Translations under genes and position numbers: made by a program | In this document: positions 32,867-63,469 of the stretch, in pieces | Numbering within the stretch: position 1 is the first letter of the stretch | Layout of the letters: every line of letters begins with the position of its first letter | Notes under the pieces: generated by a model | What the model was told of the DNA's origin: nothing | Seen by the model: only the letters and a program-made list of their open reading frames with translations | Database searches by the model: none | Source: a bacterium | GTDB lineage: Bacteria; Bacillota_I; Bacilli_A; RF39; UBA660 | NCBI GenBank assembly: GCA_963645945.1 | Contig: CAVIUA010000048.1 | Span: 9,827 to 73,826, forward strand | Direction of reading: 5' to 3' | Length of the DNA stretch: 64,000 nt

Positions 32867-33010
32867 AAAACACCTCCTTATTTTATTGTAAGGATGCCAT
32901 AAAAAAGTTTCTTAACTATATAGACAGCCAAGAAACTTTTAATACTCTATAAAGTCCTCGGTAGGATTTATTTGTATACCTACTGTCTATGGCACCAACA
33001 AATTGTCTTT
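32867..33010 (-). promoter_or_regulatory. rplJ (L10) leader with attenuator
   Basis: Minus strand contains the hairpin AAGTTTCTT-(16 nt)-AAGAAACTT followed by TTTT. An upstream segment ATAGACAG can pair with CTGTCTAT in that hairpin's loop, giving alternative structures. Position and architecture match the Bacillota L10 leader. Confidence 0.55.
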
Positions 33011-50521: not shown

Positions 50522-50830
50522 TTATTTTTCCGGTATTTTAATAATAAATTCCCCATCTTTTGAATATAAATATTTTTCTCTAGCATATCTAGCAATATAA
50601 TCAGGATCTTGTAATTTATTAACATCTACTCGTAACTCTTCTTCCTTCTCTTTTAGACTTGCTAGTTTTTCATCTAATTCATTTTTTTCACGATATTTAT
50701 CATATATTTCAACCCAGTAGTGTCCTATTGTAAAAGTAGTTACGATAATAATAGCTAAAGAACCTAATCCAAAAATAACAAGTCTTCTTTTTGTTTTTTT
50801 AACTGTACTAGAAGATTTTCTTTTTGCCAT
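50522..50830 (-). CDS. divIC: Septum formation initiator (DivIC/FtsB family)
   Basis: 102 aa. One TM segment then a coiled coil (EKLASLKEKEEELRVDVNKLQDPDYI). It follows yabQ. Confidence 0.7.
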   Translation of the reverse strand: MAKRKSSSTVKKTKRRLVIFGLGSLAIIIVTTFTIGHYWVEIYDKYREKNELDEKLASLKEKEEELRVDVNKLQDPDYIARYAREKYLYSKDGEFIIKIPEK

Positions 50831-50920
50831 ATTTACGTCACCTACCTTATCACCATATATTATAATCCTATAATAATAAAAGATTCAATAAACAAAAGAA
50901 AAAAAGGACTCACTTTACAG

Positions 50921-51196
50921 TCACTTTTTACGTAAAAATCTAAAAAATGTATAACTTAAAAGAAATCCCAAAATTAAAAGTAATAAAAAATAAATATGTA
51001 AAATACCATTATTAATTAATTTAATACCTAAAAAATATATTAAAGAAAAATCAAATAAAAACAAAAAGTTACCCAGTATTTTAATTTTCTTATTTTTATT
51101 GAATAATAACCCATAATTTAAATTAGTAAAAACACTAAGAATAATTCCAAATAAAAATGAAAATACAAAACTATATGTTTGTAGTTTTAAATTCAC
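50921..51196 (-). CDS. yabQ: Spore cortex biosynthesis protein YabQ-like
   Basis: 91-aa small polytopic membrane protein. Its GTG start overlaps the yabP stop (TAGTG). The call rests mainly on position. Confidence 0.55.
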   Translation of the reverse strand: MNLKLQTYSFVFSFLFGIILSVFTNLNYGLLFNKNKKIKILGNFLFLFDFSLIYFLGIKLINNGILHIYFLLLLILGFLLSYTFFRFLRKK

Positions 51197-51489
51197 TACT
51201 TAAATAACCTATTAAAAATACTTTCTTCTTTATTTTTCTTAGTATTTTCTTCTACATAATTAATACCAGAAACATTTCCTTTTATTGAAACATTCCCTTG
51301 CAAAGTATCAAGTTTAACTAACTCTAATTCACTACCCTTAATAACTATAAAACCCATAATTGTTTCTAATAGAAATTGCTCACTATCAAAATTCTCTATT
51401 TTTTTAACTCCTGTAATTATCAAATTCTTTCTCTCAAACAAATTAATACCATGATTATAACTATTAATACTATTTTCTTGTTTATCCAT
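51196..51489 (-). CDS. yabP: Sporulation protein YabP
   Basis: Start trimmed to ATG 51489, with an AGGAGG RBS. ITGVKKIENFDSEQFLLETIMG closely matches B. subtilis YabP (ITGVKHVESFDNEEFLLETVMG, recalled). Confidence 0.8.
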   Translation of the reverse strand: MDKQENSINSYNHGINLFERKNLIITGVKKIENFDSEQFLLETIMGFIVIKGSELELVKLDTLQGNVSIKGNVSGINYVEENTKKNKEESIFNRLFK

Positions 51490-51548
51490 ACAATTCCTCC
51501 TAACAAAGTATATGACAAAAAGAAAATAATAGAACAAAAAAAGATGCC

Positions 51549-51830
51549 TTAAGCATCTTCCTCTTCTGAATCATCCTCAGCATTTTTATAAGCTTCTAAA
51601 ATAGCCTCTTCAAACATAGCACGAACTTCTGGATTTATAGGATGTGCTATATCACGATAACCACCAGTAGCAGTCTTTCGGCTAGGCATTGCTATAAATA
51701 GTCCGTTGTCTCCTTCAATAATACGAATATCATGTACTGCAAAACTGTCATCTAATAATACAGAAGCAATACCCTTCATACGAGATCCTTCTTTTTCAAT
51801 TTTACGTACATTTACAGATGTAATTTTCAT
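51549..51830 (-). CDS. spoVG: Septation/sporulation protein SpoVG
   Basis: 93 aa. [11 protein letters not shown]...[23 protein letters not shown]...YRDIAHPIN. Confidence 0.92.
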
Positions 51831-52075
51831 ATGAATTTTCCTCCCTCATAAAGTATAATCACTTTATATAATTATTTTATAATATAAAACTATAAAAATC
51901 AAGCATTTTATAGCGAGTAAATATAGTAAAATCAATAAAAAGAACAATAAATAATAACATTATCCAAACTAGCATCAAAAGATGTATTATATTTAATATT
52001 TTTTAAAATCTTATCTAACAAATACTTATAATTATCTACTCCATCACCATAACAATTATAGCAAAACCGTTTTTA

Positions 52076-52288
52076 CTAATCAATTATTTCTAAACTATCA
52101 ACAATTAAATCACTATAACTAAATGACTTAACTTTACTATTATCTAATGTAATAATAAAAATAGCTGGATATAAATCAGTTATAATACCTTGAAACTCAT
52201 CAATTTGATTCCTAGTACCCTTAAATCTAAATGAATGAACAATACCCTTATTACTAGCTACATACTCCTTTATTTTATCAAGTGTCAT
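52076..52288 (-). CDS. veg: Veg protein
   Basis: 70 aa. The GIITDLYPAIFIITLD...SFSYSDL pattern matches Veg. It lies next to yabG. Confidence 0.85.
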   Translation of the reverse strand: MTLDKIKEYVASNKGIVHSFRFKGTRNQIDEFQGIITDLYPAIFIITLDNSKVKSFSYSDLIVDSLEIID

Positions 52289-53110: not shown

Positions 53111-54466
53111 TTACTCTTTCTGTTTTGAATATTCTACAATATTATACCAAGTAACCGGATCTATAACACCCGTCATCTCTTGATTAAATATTGACTGTAT
53201 TTTCATTACTGACCTTTCCATTAAGTCATCAAATATTCCAGATACTCTAACTCCAGGAATATTACCAGTCTGTTGACAAATTTTTAACAAAAAGTTTTGT
53301 ATAATTCTAACATCATCACCTGACATACCAAGAGCTAATAATCTACCTTGAAACAACTCATCTTCATACTGAGCATACTCTTCTGGAATATTACGTATTA
53401 TCTCTTTATACACCGTAACCAATTCATTCCAAGTATCAGCGTCAACTACACCAATAGCTGGCAAACCATATTTTTTCTGAAAGTTTATTACCATTGCCTT
53501 AGTATTATCATTAAAGACACTATTAAGTCTTAAACTTGGTAAATCTGGATCAAAATAAGCAATTGTTAATAAAACATAATGTAATACTTGAACTCCTAAA
53601 CCAACATCTGAATACTTAAGTTCATTACCATAATCATAAATAGCCTCTTCTTCACCTATTCCTTCAGAATAAATATCATTAACTCTTTTAACTGCATTAT
53701 AAATATACTTTATTTTATACCAAGTAGAATAATCAACAATACCAGTAGGATTCAAGTTAAATATTTCTTGAAACTTTTTTACACTATTTTGTGTATAAAC
53801 ACCAAAGACGCCATTAACTCTAGGAATCTTAGGAATAGCTGGATAATTATTTGATATTCTATTTAATTCTCTCTGTATTATTCTTACCTTATCACCAGCA
53901 TTACCAAGTTCAATAGGATAACCAGGATAAGCACCAAACACTTCCCCAGTTGGAGCATTTTCTTTTATATTAACATCATTACCATAATAATATTTTAATA
54001 TTTCTAAAGGAGTTTTATTTTGTCTTGCCAAAGAAACACTTCCCCATTGTGATAACCCGTTACAAGTAGTAACTTTTCCATCACAATAAACAGCATTTAA
54101 AGGTTGTATTTGACCAGTACGATAAATATAATTGTTAAATATTTGATCAACTTTTTTAGAAATAGTATCAAACACTTGTCTATTCTTAACAAATGACTGA
54201 TCATATGCTGGCAATGACGTAATATCAAATGTATAACTTTTACTAGGATACCATTCATTATAAATACGATTTAACGCAAATGATATTTGTGCAAGTATAT
54301 TTGCCTCTATCGCACTATCAGGCCAAGTAGGATAAATTTCATTAGAAGCTACATTTTTAATATAATCAACAAAAGGTAAACTTAAATTTTCAGCGGCCTC
54401 ATCAGGAGCCCCTAAATGTACTACAATCTCAGTTGGAATAGTAGGATAATTAATAACATCATTCAT
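53111..54466 (-). CDS. SleC-like spore cortex-lytic enzyme body: catalytic region plus three PG_binding_1-like repeats
   Basis: 451 aa. EIVVHLGAPDEAAENLSLPFVDYIKNVASNEIYPTWPDSAIEANILAQISFALNRIYNEWY matches the conserved block of clostridial SleC as I recall it. Three repeats follow of the type G..G..V..IQ..L....P.....G.FG..T...V..FQ....L...G.VD..TW. Confidence 0.55.
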   Translation of the reverse strand: MNDVINYPTIPTEIVVHLGAPDEAAENLSLPFVDYIKNVASNEIYPTWPDSAIEANILAQISFALNRIYNEWYPSKSYTFDITSLPAYDQSFVKNRQVFDTISKKVDQIFNNYIYRTGQIQPLNAVYCDGKVTTCNGLSQWGSVSLARQNKTPLEILKYYYGNDVNIKENAPTGEVFGAYPGYPIELGNAGDKVRIIQRELNRISNNYPAIPKIPRVNGVFGVYTQNSVKKFQEIFNLNPTGIVDYSTWYKIKYIYNAVKRVNDIYSEGIGEEEAIYDYGNELKYSDVGLGVQVLHYVLLTIAYFDPDLPSLRLNSVFNDNTKAMVINFQKKYGLPAIGVVDADTWNELVTVYKEIIRNIPEEYAQYEDELFQGRLLALGMSGDDVRIIQNFLLKICQQTGNIPGVRVSGIFDDLMERSVMKIQSIFNQEMTGVIDPVTWYNIVEYSKQKE

Positions 54467-54468
54467 AA

Positions 54469-54873
54469 TTATTCACCTGCACCTTCAAATGAAGAACTTG
54501 TTATTGGAAACTGTATTGGCTGAATAATTTTTACATCATCAAAAATATATATAACATAATCTTTAGTCTCATTAGTATTTATATTTTTAGCAACAATATT
54601 ATAAGTAGTAGAAACGATATCATCAGCAGACTCTACATCGCTCTTCATTTCCTTTGTCGGTAAACTAATATTATCAATAATACCAGAAGAATCAGTAACA
54701 CCTTCGTAAAAAACAACTCTTTTACCATCAATATCTTTATAAATAGTAATATCAACATCTTTCAAAGGAAAAGCCTGATTAGCAGTAAATACTTGAACTT
54801 TTAAAAGTCCAGAACCAATATTTTGACTAGCAAAATCTATAAAATTTTTACTATCATACAAAGTATCATTCAT
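54469..54873 (-). CDS. Small beta-sandwich (carboxypeptidase-regulatory-like) protein resembling the SleC pre-region
   Basis: Start trimmed to ATG 54873, with RBS AAAGGGTG. GLLKVQVFTANQAFPLKDVDITIYKD...GVTDSSGIIDNISLP is the pattern of a CarboxypepD_reg-like domain. The stop lies 2 nt before the next gene's start, whose RBS AGGTGA is inside this ORF. Confidence 0.4.
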   Translation of the reverse strand: MNDTLYDSKNFIDFASQNIGSGLLKVQVFTANQAFPLKDVDITIYKDIDGKRVVFYEGVTDSSGIIDNISLPTKEMKSDVESADDIVSTTYNIVAKNINTNETKDYVIYIFDDVKIIQPIQFPITSSSFEGAGE

Positions 54874-54889
54874 ATAAAACACCCTTTCT

Positions 54890-55720
54890 TTATATTATTA
54901 ATTTTTGACCAAGTGAAAGTAAATTACTAGTCAAATTATTTTTTTTTTTAATGACATCTACTGTCGTATCAAACTTTCTTGCTATAGAATAAAGACTATC
55001 TCCAGCTTGAACAATATAATAAGTATCACCAGTACTTGGAATTTTTAAAACTTGTCCTATTGATAAATTATTAGTACTAAGATTATTAAGAGATTTTATT
55101 TCTGAAACACTAGTATTATATTTTCTAGCTATTGAATAAAGATTATCACCTGACTTAACAGTATAAGTAATATAATCCTCCGGAACAACAAAGTCTTCTC
55201 CATAACACTCTTCAACTGATGAAACACTTTTATTGTCCTTTACTATCAAAATCTGACCTATTGATAATACATCAGTCTTTAAATTATTATCTTTTTTTAT
55301 TTTATCTACTGTAGTTCCAAATTTATTTGCAATACTATATAAATTATCTCCAGCTTGAACAGTATAATTTACATAGTCTGGCATTGATGTATTATCACTC
55401 TTATTCATATAACAAGGTATTCTAATTCTTTGTCCTATTGAAAGATTATTACTAGTTAAATTATTATATCTCTTAATAGCGTCTACTGTAGTATCATATT
55501 TTTTCGCTATTGAATATAAATTATCCCTTTTAACAACAGTATAAATAACACATTCAGATGGATTATTTTCATCTCCTCCAGAAATAATAAGCACTTGTAA
55601 TGGAACAATATTATCATCAGATAAATTATTCAATTCCCTTAATTTCTGTACACTAGTGTTAAACTGTCTAGATATTCCATACAACGTATCACCTTTCTGA
55701 ACTACATACGTATTATTCAT
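54890..55720 (-). CDS. Protein made of five LysM repeats
   Basis: Start trimmed to ATG 55720, with RBS AAAGGAG. Five copies of Y.V..GD.LY.IA..F/Y.T.V..I...NNL....L..GQ.L.I. Confidence 0.8.
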   Translation of the reverse strand: MNNTYVVQKGDTLYGISRQFNTSVQKLRELNNLSDDNIVPLQVLIISGGDENNPSECVIYTVVKRDNLYSIAKKYDTTVDAIKRYNNLTSNNLSIGQRIRIPCYMNKSDNTSMPDYVNYTVQAGDNLYSIANKFGTTVDKIKKDNNLKTDVLSIGQILIVKDNKSVSSVEECYGEDFVVPEDYITYTVKSGDNLYSIARKYNTSVSEIKSLNNLSTNNLSIGQVLKIPSTGDTYYIVQAGDSLYSIARKFDTTVDVIKKKNNLTSNLLSLGQKLII

Positions 55721-55756
55721 AGAATTACTCCTTTCATTAATATATATGAAAAAAGT

Positions 55757-55782
55757 CAAAAAAAAACCCGTATTTTTCGGGT
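55757..55782 (-). terminator. Intrinsic terminator after rsmA
   Basis: Minus strand ACCCG-aaaaata-CGGGT followed by nine T. Confidence 0.7.
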
Positions 55783-55788
55783 AAATAA

Positions 55789-56592
55789 CTATTTAGTACA
55801 CAATTCATTAGCTAAATCAACAAATACTTTAACGGGCAAAGCCTCAGCTCTTACAGATAAATCATATCCAAACTTCTGTAAAACCATATTAACTTTTTCT
55901 AAATCATAACCTACTAAATTATTCTTAATAGTCTTTCTTTTTTGTTGAAAACTATCTCTAACTAATTTCTCAAAAAGTTGACTATCTAAAAGTTCATACT
56001 TATTTTCTTTTTCTTTAAAAGAAATAATAACACTATCTACATTAGGCACTGGAACAAATTCATTCCTAGAAACCAAGAACTCTTTACGAGCATCAAAATA
56101 ATACTGTAATAAGACAGATATTGAACCATATGACTTATTACCAGGACCAGTTGTAAATCTATCACCAACTTCTTTTTGAACCATCATAACTATTCTTTTA
56201 AATTTTAACTTACTATCTATAAGCTTCAAAATAATTGGCGTTGTTATATAATAAGGAACATTACTAACAAAATACAAATTTTCATAATCATATTTTGAAA
56301 TATCACCACATAAATCAGAAGTTAAAAAGTCTTTAAACAAAACTTCTACGTTATTTAGACCCTCTAATCTACTATAAAGTTCATCTTTTAAATCTTCATC
56401 TATTTCATAAGCTAGCACATTATCAGCTTTTTTAGCAAGTTCTCTAGTCATAATTGCGCCACCTGGACCAACTTCAATAACTAAAGATTTTTCTTTAATA
56501 TCCGCAACATCTACAATTCTTTTAACTACACTTATATTCTTCAAAAAGTTTTGTCCAAACTTTTTCTTAAAATCAACATTATATCTTTCCAT
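55789..56592 (-). CDS. rsmA: 16S rRNA (adenine1518/1519-N6)-dimethyltransferase
   Basis: 267 aa. KKKFGQNFL, VIEVGPGGGAMT-type motif I, and SNVPYYITTPI. Confidence 0.93.
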   Translation of the reverse strand: MERYNVDFKKKFGQNFLKNISVVKRIVDVADIKEKSLVIEVGPGGAIMTRELAKKADNVLAYEIDEDLKDELYSRLEGLNNVEVLFKDFLTSDLCGDISKYDYENLYFVSNVPYYITTPIILKLIDSKLKFKRIVMMVQKEVGDRFTTGPGNKSYGSISVLLQYYFDARKEFLVSRNEFVPVPNVDSVIISFKEKENKYELLDSQLFEKLVRDSFQQKRKTIKNNLVGYDLEKVNMVLQKFGYDLSVRAEALPVKVFVDLANELCTK

Positions 56593-56620: not shown

Positions 56621-57274
56621 CTAAATAATTTCCAATTCTTCTTCCTTTGCTTTACTCTTCCATTTAGAAACTATTTTTAAAATATCAAATATTAAAATCG
56701 CAATAGCTGGTACTACTATTCCTAACATAAATCCATATGAAGTAGTTAAAAACCTTCTAACAGCACCAAGCTTAGGTATTTTTAAAATTACTTTTCCAAA
56801 TATCCTATCTTCCGCAACTATTGAAGGATCCATAATACTATTATTATCACCCTTAGTTCTAAATAAATATGCACCAGAACTAGATTTTTCTTTACTAACT
56901 ATTCTATGTGTAACAGTTAAATCTGGATAAGACGGATCAATAGATGAGAATGTTATTATATCACCTAATTCCAAATTTTTACCAGTTTCTCTTCTAATAA
57001 CAATAGCGTCATCAACATTAATTGTTGGTACCATACTTTGAGAAACAATAATATAAGCATCAAATAAAGGTGTTTTATTATTACCTTTACTTAAGTTATA
57101 AACTAAATCTCCAAAGTATAAAGCCATTACTAAACCAAAGCCTACAAAGAAGACAAAAACTGCATATAAAAATGCCCGAGCTATAAAATGAAAAATATAC
57201 TTTATCTTTTCAAAAGTACTTAACTCAGTCTGAAAATTATGCACTTTACCATTTAAATCAGCATGAATTCTCAT
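56621..57274 (-). CDS. sipW: Signal peptidase I, SipW (ER/archaeal) type
   Basis: 217 aa. Ser box VSQSMVPTI, His box LTVTHRIV, TKGDNN, DPSIVAEDRIFGKV, and both N- and C-terminal TM segments. It parallels B. subtilis SipW (SGSMEPTF, ITHRII, TKGDNN, recalled). Confidence 0.85.
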   Translation of the reverse strand: MRIHADLNGKVHNFQTELSTFEKIKYIFHFIARAFLYAVFVFFVGFGLVMALYFGDLVYNLSKGNNKTPLFDAYIIVSQSMVPTINVDDAIVIRRETGKNLELGDIITFSSIDPSYPDLTVTHRIVSKEKSSSGAYLFRTKGDNNSIMDPSIVAEDRIFGKVILKIPKLGAVRRFLTTSYGFMLGIVVPAIAILIFDILKIVSKWKSKAKEEELEII

Positions 57275-57354
57275 GAAATTGCCTCCTAATCTATAACAAT
57301 TATAATACTTATCAAAGTTAAAAATCTATATTTTTACAAATAAAAAAGAACGCT

Positions 57355-57966
57355 TTACACGTCCAAATTATAATTAACTTTCACAATAGCCTTAAAATTT
57401 TTAGAAGAACTACCTATAACAGTCTCTTCATCGGTCCATATTTTAAGTCTATAATTATCACAAAATTGCTTAGTATCTTCAGTTGTATTTCTAAAAATAC
57501 CAGAATATAAAATCATACTATTACTTAAATTATCAGTCTCATAAATATTATTTTCTAAAGTAAAAGTAAAATAACTAGGATAATTATCAACAGGAACATA
57601 TCTTCCATTAACAAGTTTTTCTAAATATATTCTAACTTCGTTATCACCAAGTAAAGCATAATCATCATCTTTAACTCTTTCTAACAACACTTCATAATTA
57701 ATAGTATTATTTGAAGACACATTAGAAATAATTTTAAAGTCTAAATAACTATTCATAGCTATTCCTTCTGAGTCATTCATTGGTAAAGTTCCAATTAAAA
57801 AAATACCATCAGCATCAGTATCATAATCAATATAAACAATGTCTTTAGAATTTAAATTAGAATTAGGTTCAACTAAAACAGCATAACTAACACCAACTAT
57901 CGCAACTATTAAAATAGCCAATCCAAGTATTGACAATAATAATTGTTTTGACAAAGTATTATCCAT
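57355..57966 (-). CDS. Paralog 3 of an N-terminally anchored ~200-aa family, candidate SipW substrate
   Basis: 203 aa. One N-terminal hydrophobic segment ending VGVSYAVL. Shares motifs with the two upstream genes: LPMNDSEG, NYEVLLE, VRIYLEK, NYRLKIWTDEE, IVKVN. Confidence 0.6.
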   Translation of the reverse strand: MDNTLSKQLLLSILGLAILIVAIVGVSYAVLVEPNSNLNSKDIVYIDYDTDADGIFLIGTLPMNDSEGIAMNSYLDFKIISNVSSNNTINYEVLLERVKDDDYALLGDNEVRIYLEKLVNGRYVPVDNYPSYFTFTLENNIYETDNLSNSMILYSGIFRNTTEDTKQFCDNYRLKIWTDEETVIGSSSKNFKAIVKVNYNLDV

Positions 57967-57984
57967 AATACCACCGCCTCAAAA

Positions 57985-58572
57985 CTACTTATCTTTTCCA
58001 AATACATCTACTTTTACAGAAACATAATAAACACTATCAGGAACAACAGAACTCTTTTCATCTAAAAATACTCTAAGACGGTAATTATCAACTGAGTCAC
58101 GTTTCTTAGTATCTTCTAATAGTACCATAGAACCAGCTGGAGTTGAAAGTTTACTACTCTTATTAAGACCTTTAAAAACAGAAGGTCCAAATACTTTACT
58201 AAAAGATCCGGAATTTTGTTTTTCTAAATAAAACTTAATCATATCACCAGTAACATTAGATTCATCTTCAATAATAGAAACAGCAATTTCATAATTAATT
58301 TCATCAGAATCTTCCAACTTAGTATTAACAACAAAATCAAAATATTGTTCACTAGTTTTACCAAGTGAATCTGTTAAAGGGATTAAATTAGTAAACTTAA
58401 ATGTATTACTATCAGTATAACTCATAGTAATTACACCAGGATTATATTCATCAACAGTATCATCTTTTTTATTACTTAAAAGACCAAATGCTAATACAAC
58501 TATCAAAATAACTAAAACACTAATTAATATAATCCAACAAATAACTTTTTTTGATACACCCTTTTTATCCAT
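57985..58572 (-). CDS. Paralog 2 of the same family
   Basis: 195 aa with an N-terminal TM segment. Motifs IPLTDSLG, NYEIAVS, IKFYLEK, NYRLRVFLDEK, VKVD. AGGAGG RBS. Confidence 0.6.
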   Translation of the reverse strand: MDKKGVSKKVICWIILISVLVILIVVLAFGLLSNKKDDTVDEYNPGVITMSYTDSNTFKFTNLIPLTDSLGKTSEQYFDFVVNTKLEDSDEINYEIAVSIIEDESNVTGDMIKFYLEKQNSGSFSKVFGPSVFKGLNKSSKLSTPAGSMVLLEDTKKRDSVDNYRLRVFLDEKSSVVPDSVYYVSVKVDVFGKDK

Positions 58573-58586
58573 ATAAGTTAATCCTC

Positions 58587-59174
58587 CTAAGATAATTTCT
58601 TAACTTTTATTATACCATTAAATTCTTTTTTTGTATCACTTAAAAAATAAGTTTCATCTAACCAAAGACGTAATTTGAATTCTTGCTTCTGATTTCCAAA
58701 AATTGTACCAGAATATAATAACTTACCAGATGCACTACTCTTTGAAACTCTTAAATTTCGATATGTCATAACTTCATTACCAGAATAATCTTTAAAAGCT
58801 TTTCCATCTCCATCAGTCAAATAAACTTTTACATAGTTTGGATCAATAGTATTATCATTTTCTTCACTCTCCAAATAAACTTCATAATTACTAGAAATAT
58901 TCTTATCACCAGTACTTTCTACTGAAAAAGATATTTCATTTAGAATATCATCATCCACATTAGAAGCATCAAGAGTTCTACCAGATTCATCTGTTAATGG
59001 TAATTTATTAGATATATGAATACTATTAGTACCAGTTAAACTAACACTATTAGAATTAGAATTAAATTCATCCTTTGTTAAAGCAATTACAATTATAACC
59101 AAAAAGAAAAAAACAATAGACATTACAAATAAAAACGTATTTTTATTAAAATATCTAGACATCTTATAGTTCAT
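58587..59174 (-). CDS. Paralog 1 of the same family
   Basis: 195 aa with an N-terminal TM segment. Motifs LPLTDESG, NYEVYLE, VKVYLTD, FKLRLWLDET, IKVK. Confidence 0.6.
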   Translation of the reverse strand: MNYKMSRYFNKNTFLFVMSIVFFFLVIIVIALTKDEFNSNSNSVSLTGTNSIHISNKLPLTDESGRTLDASNVDDDILNEISFSVESTGDKNISSNYEVYLESEENDNTIDPNYVKVYLTDGDGKAFKDYSGNEVMTYRNLRVSKSSASGKLLYSGTIFGNQKQEFKLRLWLDETYFLSDTKKEFNGIIKVKKLS

Positions 59175-59217: not shown

Positions 59218-59964
59218 TTACAAGTCAAATAAATTACTAGCAGTCTTAGTAGTCTTTTCTTCTACTTCAGATAAAGAAACATTTAATATATCCGCTATTT
59301 TTGTTGCAATAACAGGTATATACTTTGAACTGTTCTGCTTACCACGAAAAGGTTCAGGTGCTAAATAAGGAGCATCTGTCTCTAACACTATATTATCAAG
59401 TCCAACATGTTCAACAACTTTATATAAATTACTATTTTTAAAAGTAACTACTCCACCAATACCAAGCTTATAACCAAGCTTAATATAAATATCAGCAGTT
59501 TCTACACTACCAGAAAAACAATGTATAACACCTTTTACATTATGTTTCTTTAAAGTCTCAATAGTATCATTAACAGCATCTCTACTATGTATAACAACAG
59601 GTAAATTTAATTTTTCAGCTATTATTAATTGCTTCTCAAATAATTCTTTTTGTATATCAATATCTTCTTTTCCATAATGATAATCAAGGCCTATTTCACC
59701 AACACCAACAACTTTATCAGTATTCAATAACTCTTCAAGTAACTCTAAATCAGCATCAGTAGTATCAACTTCTGAAGGATGGAATCCTAAAGTAACATAT
59801 ATTGAATCATATTTTTTAGCTAGAGACAAAGCTTCCTCAAAAGTATTTTTAGTACAAGCAGAAACAATAAGTAATTTAACTCCAGATTCTAAATTTTCTT
59901 TTATTACTTTATCTACATCTTCATAATCTTCAATAGATAAATGACAATGTGTATCAATAAACAT
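59218..59964 (-). CDS. tatD: TatD-family metal-dependent DNase/hydrolase (YabD-like)
   Basis: Start trimmed to ATG 59964 (MFIDTHCHL), with a GGAGG RBS. GEIGLDYHY, VIHSRDA, GVIHCFSG, ETDAPYL. Confidence 0.9.
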   Translation of the reverse strand: MFIDTHCHLSIEDYEDVDKVIKENLESGVKLLIVSACTKNTFEEALSLAKKYDSIYVTLGFHPSEVDTTDADLELLEELLNTDKVVGVGEIGLDYHYGKEDIDIQKELFEKQLIIAEKLNLPVVIHSRDAVNDTIETLKKHNVKGVIHCFSGSVETADIYIKLGYKLGIGGVVTFKNSNLYKVVEHVGLDNIVLETDAPYLAPEPFRGKQNSSKYIPVIATKIADILNVSLSEVEEKTTKTASNLFDL

Positions 59965-59993
59965 AAAAATACCTCCAAAATAAAAATACCATA

Positions 59994-60158
59994 TTAATGG
60001 CATTTTTTCCATCTATATATTTTTAAACTAATATAGGAATACAACATAAAACAAAAATAAACAATATCTAACATATTAAAATTCATCAAAATATTATACA
60101 ACAGTACTACCTGAGATAACACAAAAATTAAATCAGAAACAATAAAACGATTATTCAT
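59994..60158 (-). CDS. Possible small hydrophobic protein (54 aa)
   Basis: Below the track's size cutoff. Manual translation gives MNNRFIVSDLIFVLSQVVLLYNILMNFNMLDIVYFCFMLYSYISLKIYRWKKCH. RBS AAGGAGA lies 6 nt before the ATG at 60158. There is no homology evidence. Confidence 0.3.
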   Translation of the reverse strand: MNNRFIVSDLIFVLSQVVLLYNILMNFNMLDIVYFCFMLYSYISLKIYRWKKCH

Positions 60159-60265
60159 AACAATCTCCTTAAATTATATTTGTACTGCGAAACAATATAA
60201 ATATAACACAAAAAAGAGAAAATTAATTTCTAACCTTCTCTTTTCTTATAATTATACACTATATT

Positions 60266-61801
60266 TTACATCTCTTGAAGAAATTTATCTTTATCTATTC
60301 TTTGGAATAAAACCTCAGGTTGTCCTAATTTGTATTCATTATCTTCTACATATTTAAATTCAGGAACATCATTATTTATTTGTTTTAAAATTTCCTTACT
60401 TGTATTAGTAATAAATGGCTCTAACAGAATAGCACATACTCTAATAGATTCTAATAAGTTATAAATAACTGTTTCTAATCTATCTTTCTTAGCCTCATCT
60501 TTAGCTAATATCCAAGGAGTAGTATCATCTATATATTTATTACTAGCTCTTAAAACATTCATAATTTCAGTTAAAGCATCACTTACTTGATAATCATCCA
60601 TTTTAGAAACTAATTTACTATCTAATTCATTGATACTTTCAATAAAAGACTTATCTATATCATCATATACTTTCTTGTTACAAATAGCACCTGAAAAATA
60701 CTTATTACCCATCGAAATAGTTCTTTGAACTAAGTTACCTAAAATATTTGCTAAATCACTATTAATCTTTTCAATAAGAAGCTCATAAGTAATATTACCA
60801 TCATTAGCAAAAGGAATTTCATGCAATAAATAATATCTAACAGCATCAACACCAAATTTCTCTACTAATTCATCAGCATAAATAACATTACCTTTAGATT
60901 TACTCATCTTATCATTATTCATTAATAACCAAGGATGTCCAAAAATTTTCTCTGGTATTTCTAAACCTAATGACCATAAGAAGCAAGGCCAATAAATTGA
61001 ATGAAAACGTACAATATCTTTACCAATTAAATGTAAGTTAGCTGGCCATAATTTTTTAAATTGCTCTGTCTGACTATCAACATCATATCCAATATTAGTA
61101 ATATAATTAGTTAATGCATCAAGCCAAACATAAACAACATGTCCTTCATCAAAAGTAACTGGAATACCCCAAGTTAATGATGTTCTTGAAACACATAAAT
61201 CTTGTAAACCAGGTTTAATAAAGTTATTTAACATTTCATTTTTTCTAGAAACAGGCTGAATAAAATCAGGATGTTCTTCTATATATTTTTCTAACTTATC
61301 TTGATATTTACTTAATTTAAAGAAATATGCCTCTTCTCTTGCTTCATGAACTTCTCTATTACAGTCTGGACATTTTCCATCAACTAACTGAGACTCAGTC
61401 CAAAAAGACTCACAAGGAGTACAATATAATCCTTTGTATTCACCTTTATAAATATCTCCTGAATCATACATTTTTTTAAAGATATGTTGAACAACTTCTT
61501 TATGATGAGAATCTGTAGTTCTTACAAACTTATCATAACTAGTATTCATTAAATCCCAAATACCTTGAATTTGTTTAGCTATACCATCAACAAATTCCTT
61601 TGGTGATATACCAGCATCTCTAGCTTTTTCTTCAATTTTAATACCATGTTCATCAGTACCAGTCTGAAAATAAACATCATATCCATGTTGTCTTTTAAAT
61701 CTAGCAATTGAATCTGCCAAAACGATTTCATATGTATTACCTATATGTGGCTTACCAGAAGTATAAGCAATAGCAGTAGCAATATAAAACTTTTTACCCA
61801 T
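60266..61801 (-). CDS. metG: Methionyl-tRNA synthetase (short form, no C-terminal tRNA-binding domain)
   Basis: Start trimmed to ATG 61801 (MGKKFYIATAIAYTSGKPHIGN), with RBS GAAGGAGG. HIGN and KMSKS motifs and a CPDC zinc knuckle. Confidence 0.95.
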   Translation of the reverse strand: MGKKFYIATAIAYTSGKPHIGNTYEIVLADSIARFKRQHGYDVYFQTGTDEHGIKIEEKARDAGISPKEFVDGIAKQIQGIWDLMNTSYDKFVRTTDSHHKEVVQHIFKKMYDSGDIYKGEYKGLYCTPCESFWTESQLVDGKCPDCNREVHEAREEAYFFKLSKYQDKLEKYIEEHPDFIQPVSRKNEMLNNFIKPGLQDLCVSRTSLTWGIPVTFDEGHVVYVWLDALTNYITNIGYDVDSQTEQFKKLWPANLHLIGKDIVRFHSIYWPCFLWSLGLEIPEKIFGHPWLLMNNDKMSKSKGNVIYADELVEKFGVDAVRYYLLHEIPFANDGNITYELLIEKINSDLANILGNLVQRTISMGNKYFSGAICNKKVYDDIDKSFIESINELDSKLVSKMDDYQVSDALTEIMNVLRASNKYIDDTTPWILAKDEAKKDRLETVIYNLLESIRVCAILLEPFITNTSKEILKQINNDVPEFKYVEDNEYKLGQPEVLFQRIDKDKFLQEM

Positions 61802-61834
61802 AATATCATCCTCCTTCAAATTTAATACCAAAAA

Positions 61835-62045
61835 AAAATATTATAAACATAAGGACGAGAAGTTTCTCGCGGTACCACCTTATTTTATAATATTTCTGAT
61901 ATTATACACTCGAGTAGTTAACGCCTACCTACGATTATACCTACATATCGATATAATAGTTCAAAAGCCATACTTAAATTAATTTTTATACTCATTCCCA
62001 CCAAACAGAGTTCTCTTAATAAAAATTTAATTAAAGCTCTTCATC
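61835..62045 (-). promoter_or_regulatory. T-box leader upstream of metG
   Basis: Minus strand contains AAGGTGGTACCGCGAGAAACTTCTCGTCCTTAT (T-box core GGTGGTACCGCG) with an alternative helix ATAAGG...CCTTAT and a downstream T8 run. Upstream stem-I-like AAGAGAACTCTGTTTGGTGGGAATGAG and AGTATGG / GATATGT provide AUG candidates for the specifier. A possible promoter TTGTGT-17-TTAAAT lies at 62051-62079. Confidence 0.75.
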
Positions 62046-62085
62046 ACAACATTTAAGATATGCATGAAGTATAACACAATTTTCT

Positions 62086-62616
62086 TTATTCTTCAATATG
62101 TTTTCCTAAAAATTGTGCAACTACGCAAATTAATTTCTCATCTAGTTTTGTTATATCAGCTTTATCAGATATAACCAAGACTAATCCTATGGCATCACCA
62201 TTCATAATTATAGGTTGAATTACATAAGATAATTTCTCCTTTTCATTTTCAATTAATTCCACATTATGAAGACTAGATTCAAATAAAGTTTTCCTATCAT
62301 TCATAACACTTTCTAAATATCTAGAAATATTAGAATCAATATATTTTTTCTTTAAATTGCCAGATCCGGCAACGAATTTATCTCTATCAGTAATTAATAC
62401 TGTTTTTTTAATATTAGCATTAATTATTTCAACCAACTCTTTTGAAACATCATCCATATCAGACATTTTTGAAAATTTTTTTAAAGCAATCATTTCTCTA
62501 TCAACAAATATTTCTAAAGATTCTCCATCACGAATTCTAAGAGTACGTCGAATTTCTTTGGGAATAACAATTCTTCCTAAATCATCTACTCTTCTCACTA
62601 CACCAGTTGACTTCAT
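62086..62616 (-). CDS. spoVT: Stage V sporulation protein T (AbrB-family regulator)
   Basis: Start trimmed to ATG 62616 (MKSTGVVRRVDDLGRIVIPKEIRRTLRIRDGESLEIFVD), nearly identical in pattern to the B. subtilis SpoVT N-terminus. The C-terminal domain is GAF-like. Confidence 0.88.
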   Translation of the reverse strand: MKSTGVVRRVDDLGRIVIPKEIRRTLRIRDGESLEIFVDREMIALKKFSKMSDMDDVSKELVEIINANIKKTVLITDRDKFVAGSGNLKKKYIDSNISRYLESVMNDRKTLFESSLHNVELIENEKEKLSYVIQPIIMNGDAIGLVLVISDKADITKLDEKLICVVAQFLGKHIEE

Positions 62617-62787
62617 AAAATTATTCCTCACTTTCTTCATACTAATATTTTCTCTAGAACTACACTTTTTATACAAAATATTTGTTTCTCACATATATTA
62701 TAATAAATATTTCCAAAAATTCCCTTGGTAAATATTTCCATAGAAATGTTAATTAATTAATATTTAAAAGTATTTTTCATCAAGCAT

Positions 62788-62812: not shown

Positions 62813-63469
62813 TTATTGCACATCAAATAATCTAGAGTTTTCAAGAGTAAATAAATATCTTTCACCTTGTTCTTTAATACTATTAGTTAATATTGTATCT
62901 TTAACCAAAATTTTAAAGTCAATATTTTCAAGTAACTGCTTTAAATAATTATTATTAATATATTTAGTAACATCAGTAGTTATACGTTTTTTTATAGTTA
63001 AATCAATATCATTATCAAACAATAAATCCATTTTTTCAAATATTTCAGTATTTAATGTATCTTTAATAAAACTCTTAATTTCTGATTTTACTATTTTATT
63101 AACACTCGAAAAGTCCTTTTTCATTAATTTGATAGTATCATTATTATTTATTAATTTAAAATCATTTATTATTTTAGACAAAGTATTAATTCTAATATCT
63201 TTCAATGTCTTACAAAATTCTAAACATTTACTACGATAATTATCTAAAATGTTATCCAATTTTTCAGCTTTCAAAATTATTTTATTTTTCTTAGCCAAAT
63301 CCAAAAATCTACTTTTAATAACATCCATCGAGTCTAATGGAGGTTTTTTTAACAAAGAAGTAATATCTTCATCAAATAAAGCATTAGTATTATTAACTAA
63401 AGTATCAACTAATGCTCTTCTATAATTATCTAAATGAGTCTTTTTAAAATCTTCAATATTATTTGTCAC
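62813..63469 (-). CDS. Hypothetical protein, predicted all-helical, no recognisable motif
   Basis: 218 aa. GTG start with an AGGAG RBS 7 nt upstream. K/N/D/L-rich heptad-like sequence. I recognise no family. Confidence 0.6.
   Translation of the reverse strand: MTNNIEDFKKTHLDNYRRALVDTLVNNTNALFDEDITSLLKKPPLDSMDVIKSRFLDLAKKNKIILKAEKLDNILDNYRSKCLEFCKTLKDIRINTLSKIINDFKLINNNDTIKLMKKDFSSVNKIVKSEIKSFIKDTLNTEIFEKMDLLFDNDIDLTIKKRITTDVTKYINNNYLKQLLENIDFKILVKDTILTNSIKEQGERYLFTLENSRLFDVQ

Follow-up and report, generated by a model that had tools for sequence, protein, structure and literature searches.

A tatD-to-rsmA module of paralogous beta-sandwich proteins and a SipW-type signal peptidase in an uncultured gut bacterium: a candidate surface-fibre system

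We analysed a 64-kb stretch of DNA from an uncultured gut bacterium (hereafter the window) that contains a compact module of three related small genes, which we designated P1, P2 and P3, followed by a gene for a SipW-type signal peptidase. The module sits between tatD and rsmA, and all six genes lie on the minus strand, where they are read in the order tatD, P1, P2, P3, peptidase, rsmA. The two labels given to P1-P3 below, o-type and S-type, refer to their N-termini and are explained further on; lengths are in amino acids (aa).

59218-60012, minus strand: tatD, the upstream flank of the module (Pfam TatD_DNase, 2.7e-78)
58587-59174, minus strand: P1, o-type, 195 aa, a predicted membrane-anchored subunit
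57985-58572, minus strand: P2, o-type, 195 aa, a predicted membrane-anchored subunit
57355-57966, minus strand: P3, S-type, 203 aa, a predicted secreted or polymerising subunit
56621-57274, minus strand: signal peptidase I (SPase I) of the archaeal/endoplasmic reticulum (ER) type, SipW-like, 217 aa (TIGR02228)
55789-56592, minus strand: rsmA (ksgA), the downstream flank (Pfam RrnaAD, 4.3e-58)

An earlier reading of this DNA from its letters alone, which we refer to as the original prediction, had given the same coordinates, the same lengths for the three paralogs (195, 195 and 203 aa) and the same gaps of 14, 18 and 80 nucleotides (nt) within the module, and we confirmed all of these. The ribosome-binding sites of the module genes also agree with its description. 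G+C content is ~27% across the window, with no compositional break.

P1, P2 and P3 are true paralogs. Pairwise BLASTP comparisons gave E-values of 4e-11, 1e-10 and 4e-14 at 23–27% identity, and each protein has, as proposed, a single N-terminal hydrophobic segment. The ordered motifs that had been picked out by eye are present in the alignment of the three proteins, save that P2 reads IPLTD and not LPLTD. To gauge the extent of the family, a profile of P1-P3 was searched against 1.84 billion cluster representatives (clusters at 50% identity), and we found 1,851 representatives at E <= 1e-3, of which 733 reach E <= 1e-10. Members are mostly of ~200 aa, and some are of 300–976 aa with the family domain at the N-terminus. 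We found no meaningful match for P1-P3 in Pfam, NCBIfam, PHROGs or PDB sequences, and scanning 99 family members one by one likewise gave no meaningful match to a curated family. PF12389 (TasA/camelysin, Peptidase_M73) matched one of the 99 members, at E = 0.0048, and none of P1-P3. The earlier suggestion of a new family is in keeping with these searches, as no curated model in Pfam, NCBIfam or PDB sequences covers it.

The family carries two types of N-terminus. The S-type, to which P3 belongs, has the consensus SKQILLSVLGVAILIVAVVGVS[YF]A-xF, with a signal that ends in G-x-S-Y/F-A before the cut and continues with x-F after it. In P3 the conserved signal peptide is SKQLLLSILGLAILIVAIVGVSYA; the predicted cut falls after Ala29 (between nt 57880 and 57879), and predicted mature P3 begins at Val30 with the N-terminal peptide VLVEPNSNLNSK. 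Across the S-type alignment Gly25 (-5) and Ala29 (-1) are invariant and Ser27 (-3) is at least 90% conserved, and among 81 S-type representatives the -3 position is Ser or Thr in 79, the -2 position Tyr or Phe in 79, and the P2' position Phe in 61. The site thus obeys the rules for SPase I, and the hydrophobic segment before it is unusually well conserved. P3 is the sole open reading frame (ORF) in the 64-kb window that carries this motif. The pattern agrees position for position with the TasA/CalY signal GGGTWA-AF, both having Gly at -5, Ser or Thr at -3, an aromatic residue at -2, Ala at -1 and Phe at +2. A site with an aromatic P2' residue, such as the Phe of TasA, is reported to be cut poorly by LepB-type peptidases, and this feature to make TasA a substrate of SipW (PMC10269814).

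The o-type, comprising P1, P2 and their orthologs, has a membrane helix with charged residues directly after it and no conserved small-x-small site. P1 has its helix at residues ~11–33, no SPase I motif, and then a beta-sandwich. P2 has a helix ending in ...LAFGLL, then a polar linker and a beta-sandwich, and in the alignment of its orthologs LAF is followed by hydrophobic residues, with no conservation of small residues at -3 and -1. From these N-termini, P1 and P2 probably stay in the membrane as uncleaved signal-anchors, and only P3 looks like a peptidase substrate. The claim of three dedicated substrates is probably wrong because the P1 and P2 orthologs look uncleaved; the part of it that survives concerns P3, whose cleavage motif mirrors that of TasA. 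Some P1 orthologs have a G-C pair inside the helix, and we considered whether P1 could be a lipoprotein. We rejected this: that Cys sits in the middle of the helix, position -1 shows no conservation, and P1 of the window contains no Cys. No twin-arginine (RR) occurs in the N-termini of P1, P2 or P3.

The adjoining peptidase scores 83.8 bits with TIGR02228, the model of archaeal/ER-type SPase I (cut-off 51.85), and falls short of the cut-offs both of TIGR02227 for the bacterial LepB type (22.8 bits, cut-off 47) and of NF046067, the Bacillus SipW equivalog (65.8 bits, cut-off 190). By these profile scores it is of the SipW enzyme type, without an ortholog-level match to Bacillus SipW itself. Hydrophobic segments lie at residues 24–59 and 175–205. 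The catalytic triad is intact, with Ser79 (SQSM), His123 (THR) and Asp143 (GDNN) and not the Ser-Lys dyad of LepB-type enzymes, and the three boxes are at least 95% conserved across 67 distinct orthologs. The original assignment of a SipW-type enzyme with Ser and His boxes and two membrane segments is therefore upheld by TIGR02228 and by this conservation.

We next consider the long members of the family, of which 25 out of 26 are S-type. Seven of the 10 scanned against Pfam have C-terminal Big_2, BspA-type leucine-rich repeat (LRR), Listeria-Bacteroides repeat or DUF6273 domains. None of the 26 has a membrane segment at the C-terminus or an LPXTG motif, the latter being sought in these long members and not in P1-P3. 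Were its signal cleaved, such a protein could stay on the cell through the family domain only, as does the tip subunit of a donor-strand fibre.

Structure prediction gave confident beta-sandwiches for P1 and for mature P3, in agreement with the original prediction. The AlphaFold model of P1, from an alignment of 99 sequences, has a mean predicted local distance difference test (pLDDT) score of 92.3 and comprises a helix at residues 11–33, a short linker and an eight-strand beta-sandwich; that of mature P3, from 29 sequences, is a beta-sandwich with a pLDDT of 88.1 and a predicted template modelling score (pTM) of 0.84. With the P1 model, Foldseek placed generic sandwiches (GOLD domain, carbohydrate-binding modules) together with FimG and PapA at the top. 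With mature P3 the top match was AbpA (7UEG; E = 3e-3, probability 0.75, template modelling (TM) score 0.27), followed by donor-strand pilins, namely the PapG pilin domain, EcpA, CS20, CS17, PapA, CfaB and FimG. AbpA is treated as a TasA homolog in the field (PMC9245690). The AbpA and donor-strand pilin matches to the P3 model are suggestive, short of proof. When S-type sequences were aligned with hhalign to a 37-sequence TasA alignment, we obtained P = 6e-4 and a probability of 22–28%, with the signal peptide and first hairpin only being aligned, in register.

The conserved hydrophobic N-terminus also raised the question of whether these proteins are type IV pilin-like subunits that keep the N-terminal helix as the core of a filament. 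The family profile weakly matches archaeal type IV pilins in PDB (6NAV at E = 0.007, 8TIB at 0.038, 8FJS and 6W8X), P2 matches Pfam Pilin_N at E = 0.22, and the S-type hydrophobic segment is more conserved than is usual. However, every one of the PDB pilin matches vanishes once the hydrophobic N-terminus is removed, and pilin identity was rejected on this ground. The N-termini also have no prepilin-peptidase motif (no conserved Gly or Ala with a charged residue before the helix), the neighbourhood has no gene for a pilus ATPase, platform protein or prepilin peptidase, and the adjoining enzyme, being an SPase I, cuts after the helix. We regard this explanation as highly improbable.

To determine how far the arrangement is kept in relatives, we surveyed loci from one genome per species, seeding the search with the S-type subfamily. 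This found 272 relatives, of which 80 loci were kept; 82 loci were examined, being 81 from metagenome-assembled genomes (MAGs) of related gut Bacilli plus the window, and their ORFs were called and searched with the family hidden Markov model and the window's own proteins. The kept loci all come from gut MAGs and are mostly labelled Bacilli, Tenericutes or Mycoplasmatota. A few are labelled otherwise, among them Mycoplasma sp. CAG:877, Clostridium sp. CAG:451, Ca. Onthousia and Ca. Faecimonas; some of these odd labels are probably bin mislabels, and the NCBI taxonomy places the last two under ‘Bacilli incertae sedis’. We found that 68 of the 82 loci have one to seven tandem family genes and then the peptidase, mostly between tatD and rsmA and on one strand. 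Homologs of tatD and rsmA were detected in 62 and 64 of the 82 loci, respectively; in module-bearing loci tatD lies upstream of the family genes, and where rsmA and the peptidase are both present, rsmA lies downstream. S-type and o-type members are both present in 54 of 56 complete distinct loci, and the order o-o-S-peptidase is found in ~29 loci, the window's clade. Since 68 of the 82 loci keep family genes with the peptidase, mostly in this slot, the tatD-to-rsmA placement is ancestral for the lineage. What had looked like an unusual position inside a housekeeping operon is thus a fixed one.

Fourteen loci lack the peptidase. Twelve of these are extra dispersed copies in one MAG, one reaches its contig end after the family genes, and one is unexplained. 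Triplets commonly occurring without a peptidase, which the original prediction had named as the pattern that would tell against it, were not seen in the 82 loci. The MAG with dispersed copies, CANQWY01 from rabbit gut, has at least 12 S-type genes without an adjacent peptidase (L033, L035, L037, L039-L041, L045, L051, L060, L061, L069 and L075), some of them next to family members of 380–634 aa, and looks like a case of family expansion within a single genome. At L069 a 352-aa transposase-like ORF follows a tatD-linked copy. Separately, many related loci (L016, L029, L047, L064 and others) have a 160–190-aa ORF after the peptidase, with a membrane helix and a beta-rich body. At L072 (9495-11203) the ORF after the peptidase has the TasA-like string ‘FQVKNNG’ and is followed by membrane proteins of 233 and 172 aa before rsmA. 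These accessory ORFs have no Pfam or NCBIfam match, and the genes are missing from the window.

The module lies between spoVT and yabG in nearly all relatives; of the 68 peptidase-bearing loci, 58 contain yabG and 53 contain spoVT. The organisms are therefore probably spore-formers, and this brings in an explanation in which P3 is cleaved and becomes a secreted or wall-associated monomer, for example part of the coat or exosporium, or an adhesin module, possibly on the spore surface, with P1 and P2 functionally unrelated to it and no fibre formed. The cleavage motif fits such a role, as does the resemblance of the beta-sandwich to carbohydrate-binding modules in Foldseek; TasA, moreover, was first known as spore-associated, and several sources keep the name ‘spore coat-associated protein N’. 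The gene neighbourhood, however, carries less than it seems to. We take spoVT and yabG to flank this origin-proximal region in B. subtilis as in Bacilli generally, and the neighbourhood is therefore inherited and is not functional evidence. No sporulation promoter was identified, and a monomer leaves unexplained both the strict pairing of S-type with o-type members and the retention on the cell of cleaved S-type adhesin fusions. We consider this account improbable, and a spore-surface role as such is neither supported nor excluded.

The reading that we find best, to which we give a probability of about 0.5, is that the peptidase cuts P3, which then builds up by donor-strand complementation on P1 and P2, the two acting as anchors that cannot be cleaved. 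In outline, Sec would export all three proteins, and the adjacent peptidase would cut P3 after its G-V-S-Y-A motif, of which the Gly and Ala are invariant. The freed N-terminal strand of P3 would then enter the beta-sandwich of another member, in the manner of TasA, BsaA, archaeal bundling pili and tafi. P1 and P2 would keep their N-terminal membrane helix; having no cleavage site they could accept a strand and could not donate one, which would make them both the end of the polymer and its attachment to the membrane. The S-type fusions to C-terminal adhesin domains found elsewhere in the lineage would be the tip subunits.

Several points weigh against this reading. P3 cleavage, polymerisation and anchoring by P1 and P2 are all steps that we infer. 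The window's P3 has Leu in place of Phe at P2'. The best S-type N-terminus reaches 9.3 bits (E = 1.3) with TIGR04088, for which the cut-off is 19 bits and a TasA control scores 38; the S-type N-termini form a distinct signal class, and their likeness to the TasA signal is confined to the residue pattern. With the related models TIGR04089 and TIGR04090, neither of which appears in the top 25 families by matches to the 99 members, seven full-length S-type members and two S-type N-terminal fragments gave no match, and the TasA control matched both weakly. Searching PDB with the P1 and mature P3 models, Foldseek returned nothing at E <= 1e-3, TM-scores were ~0.27–0.35, and TasA was not in the top 50 hits for either model. 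With mature domains alone, hhalign to TasA gives P = 0.17. Homology to TasA, at which the original prediction had hinted, is accordingly not established, there being no match to PF12389, TIGR04088, TIGR04089 or TIGR04090 either. The peptidase may be the organism's sole general signal peptidase and not dedicated to the family, and the long adhesin-like members could stay attached through an N-terminal helix that is never cleaved. Finally, the survey, being seeded with S-type sequences, speaks for S-type loci and not for o-type-only ones.

Several of these points converge on the main competing explanation, in which all members including P3 are N-terminally anchored, with the beta-sandwich as a stalk close to the membrane and with neither cleavage nor polymerisation, and in which the peptidase is the lineage's general enzyme and only happens to be syntenic. 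It is in line with the confidently predicted membrane helix, the absence of cleavage motifs from P1 and P2, the long adhesin-bearing members that have no other anchor, the want of a significant TasA homology or fold match, and the housekeeping genes around the locus. A plain anchor, however, has no need of a helix end that follows SPase I rules, and in the S-type Ala at -1 and Gly at -5 are invariant with Ser or Thr at -3 in 98%. Nor does this explanation sit well with a peptidase gene that directly adjoins family genes in 68 of 82 loci, or with the pairing of the two types in 54 of 56. An aromatic P2' residue is, moreover, what makes TasA dependent on a SipW-type enzyme (PMC10269814). We judge the anchored stalk unlikely, while holding it to be the most serious competitor of a cleaved and polymerising P3.

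We also looked at how the module may be transcribed, and found the following candidate signals; for those from the consensus scan, the score alone is no proof of function.

60173-60201, minus strand: sigma-70-like promoter candidate TTTATA-17-TATAAT (consensus scan 10/12), in the 253-nt gap between metG and tatD
57338-57364, minus strand: hairpin GGACGTGTAAAGCGTTC with a T-run; 6-bp stem at 57364-57348, with the P3 stop codon in the loop
57288-57315, minus strand: weak promoter-like site TTGATA-16-TAGATT 5' of the peptidase gene (consensus scan 9/12)
55766-55782, minus strand: intrinsic-terminator-like hairpin with a T-run after rsmA

A transcript of tatD-P1-P2-P3 may begin at the first of these; a T-box leader upstream of metG shows that this gene has a regulated transcript start of its own. 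The hairpin after P3 had been described as weak with a 5-bp stem. It is indeed weak when taken alone in the window (dG -6.3 kcal/mol, z = -2.0), but the stem is of 6 bp, it is followed by a T-run, and 39 of 63 distinct related loci keep a hairpin with a T-run at this position, their complementary stems differing in sequence. There is one clean case of a compensatory change in the stem, in L017. The place of the P3 stop codon varies: in those of the aligned relatives L005, L007, L008, L009, L017 and L019 in which the stop codon can be seen, the P3-like ORF stops (TAA) just 5' of the conserved hairpin GAACGTGTAAAGCGTTC, and in the window (57336-57372, minus strand) the P3 ORF continues into the stem and ends at the TAA of the loop. 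Judging by position and conservation, the hairpin with its T-run is probably an attenuator or terminator between the structural genes and peptidase-rsmA, and the single unbroken operon first proposed is thus probably split or attenuated there. It would probably keep transcripts of the structural genes above those of peptidase-rsmA. The rsmA gene, 28 nt from the peptidase gene, is probably co-transcribed with it, and the terminator expected after rsmA was found, at 55782-55766.

The genes beyond tatD and rsmA are as follows.

3' end of mfd, minus strand: first in transcription order
62813-63469, minus strand: 218-aa ORF between mfd and spoVT, without a Pfam match
62086-62676, minus strand: spoVT
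61848-62056, minus strand: T-box leader 5' of metG (RF00230, 102.5 bits)
60266-61831, minus strand: metG
3' of the rsmA terminator, minus strand: a LysM protein, two further genes, then yabG

At the position of the 218-aa ORF (62813-63469) the relative L001 has an ORF of 217 aa, likewise without a Pfam match. The interval between rsmA and yabG (53111-55759, minus strand) holds three genes. One codes for a protein with five LysM domains, one is an ORF of 137 aa, and the product of the third, of 451 aa, has three PG_binding_1 domains and an N-terminus weakly like SpoIID. The second and third were found only in the eight closest loci, and for the LysM gene too a homolog was detected in no more than eight loci; together the three genes may be a recent cell-wall or spore-cortex insertion. 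On the far side of yabG (50522-52288, minus strand) are small ORFs of 70, 93, 113, 91 and 102 aa. The counterpart of the first in L001 matches the Veg family, and the others we presume to resemble spoVG, yabP, yabQ and divIC. A ribosomal protein L10 leader (RF00557) lies 5' of the rplJ region at 32892-33010 (minus strand) and, like the T-box leader, is ordinary.

A SipW-type peptidase encoded alongside its substrates is an arrangement of an already known kind, and operons of this build make the best-studied Gram-positive biofilm fibres, those of TasA and BsaA. We found no description in the literature searched of the P1-P3 family or of the module. What appears to be undescribed is the substrate family, its signal class and the mix of cleavable and uncleavable paralogs, and also the fixed tatD-to-rsmA position and the spread through uncultured gut Bacilli. 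If P3 does polymerise onto P1 and P2, the SipW-operon principle would extend to an uncatalogued family of at least 1,851 clusters at 50% identity and to abundant uncultured gut Bacilli, and it would gain a new design: paralogs of one fold could supply both the polymer, if cleavable, and the anchor, if not. The orders RFN20 and ML615J-28 are reported to be sortase-less and have been taken to have few surface proteins (PMC10868615); if the window's order belongs with their relatives, the module and its adhesin fusions are a candidate route of adhesin display. The predicted N-terminal peptide of mature P3 can be searched for in existing gut metaproteomes.

Among the closest known systems is tapA-sipW-tasA of B. 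subtilis, in which TasA polymerises by donor-strand exchange (PMC9674648, PMC10151520). There too the gene of a SipW-type SPase I adjoins those of its presumed substrates, the TasA signal shares with the S-type its -5 Gly, -3 Ser/Thr, -2 aromatic, -1 Ala and +2 Phe as well as a first beta-hairpin in register, and TapA is an accessory, paralog-like partner tied to anchoring and nucleation. The two systems differ in that the mature domains are not detectably homologous, with no PF12389 or TIGR04088 match here, and in that the subunits here are of ~170 aa when mature as against ~230 in TasA. Here the substrates precede the peptidase, inside a tatD-to-rsmA housekeeping slot, and the anchor candidates, unlike TapA, are uncleavable paralogs of the subunit itself.

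The sipW-bsaA-bsaB-bsaC genes of C. perfringens also combine a SipW-type peptidase with tandem, remotely TasA-like paralogs. BsaA oligomers are membrane-anchored, and in the published model the signal peptide retains each monomer until cleavage (PMC11580942). The polymers are thus held at the membrane and not at peptidoglycan, like the arrangement proposed here. In contrast to that system, our module has no TIGR04090 match and no VWA protein, and the proposed anchors are separate paralogs, dedicated to that role, that cannot be cleaved. AbpA polymerises by donor-strand insertion and has no dedicated signal peptidase near its gene (PMC9245690). As the best structural match of mature P3 it shares a beta-sandwich/jelly-roll of similar size (180 aa), but with a TM-score of only 0.27 the match is below usual significance, and unlike abpA the genes here do have a peptidase beside them.

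The haloarchaeal tafA-G genes have the same predicted parts list as the module, namely a major beta-sandwich subunit, paralogous minor subunits, a dedicated SPase I and an anchored terminating paralog. In tafi these include the dedicated SPase I TafD, the tip adhesin TafC and the membrane-anchored terminator TafF (PMC11821415), and the tip subunit resembles the long S-type members in joining an N-terminal pilin-like domain to a C-terminal adhesin domain. Tafi are archaeal and use the twin-arginine translocation pathway, whereas P1-P3 have no twin-arginine, and TafF is anchored by a C-terminal helix and not by an N-terminal one as in P1 and P2; the likeness described here is one of parts list. 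We put forward, tentatively and with less confidence than the assembly of P3 onto P1 and P2, that the module may be a hitherto unrecognised bacterial, Sec-dependent counterpart of archaeal tafi/thread filaments: a sortase-independent, chaperone-free fibre whose growth would be gated by a SipW-type peptidase, each cut releasing the donor strand of an S-type subunit, with o-type terminators and membrane anchors and S-type LRR, Big_2 and Listeria-Bacteroides-repeat tips. In that case the module would serve a large group of uncultured gut Bacilli as their main platform for displaying adhesins.

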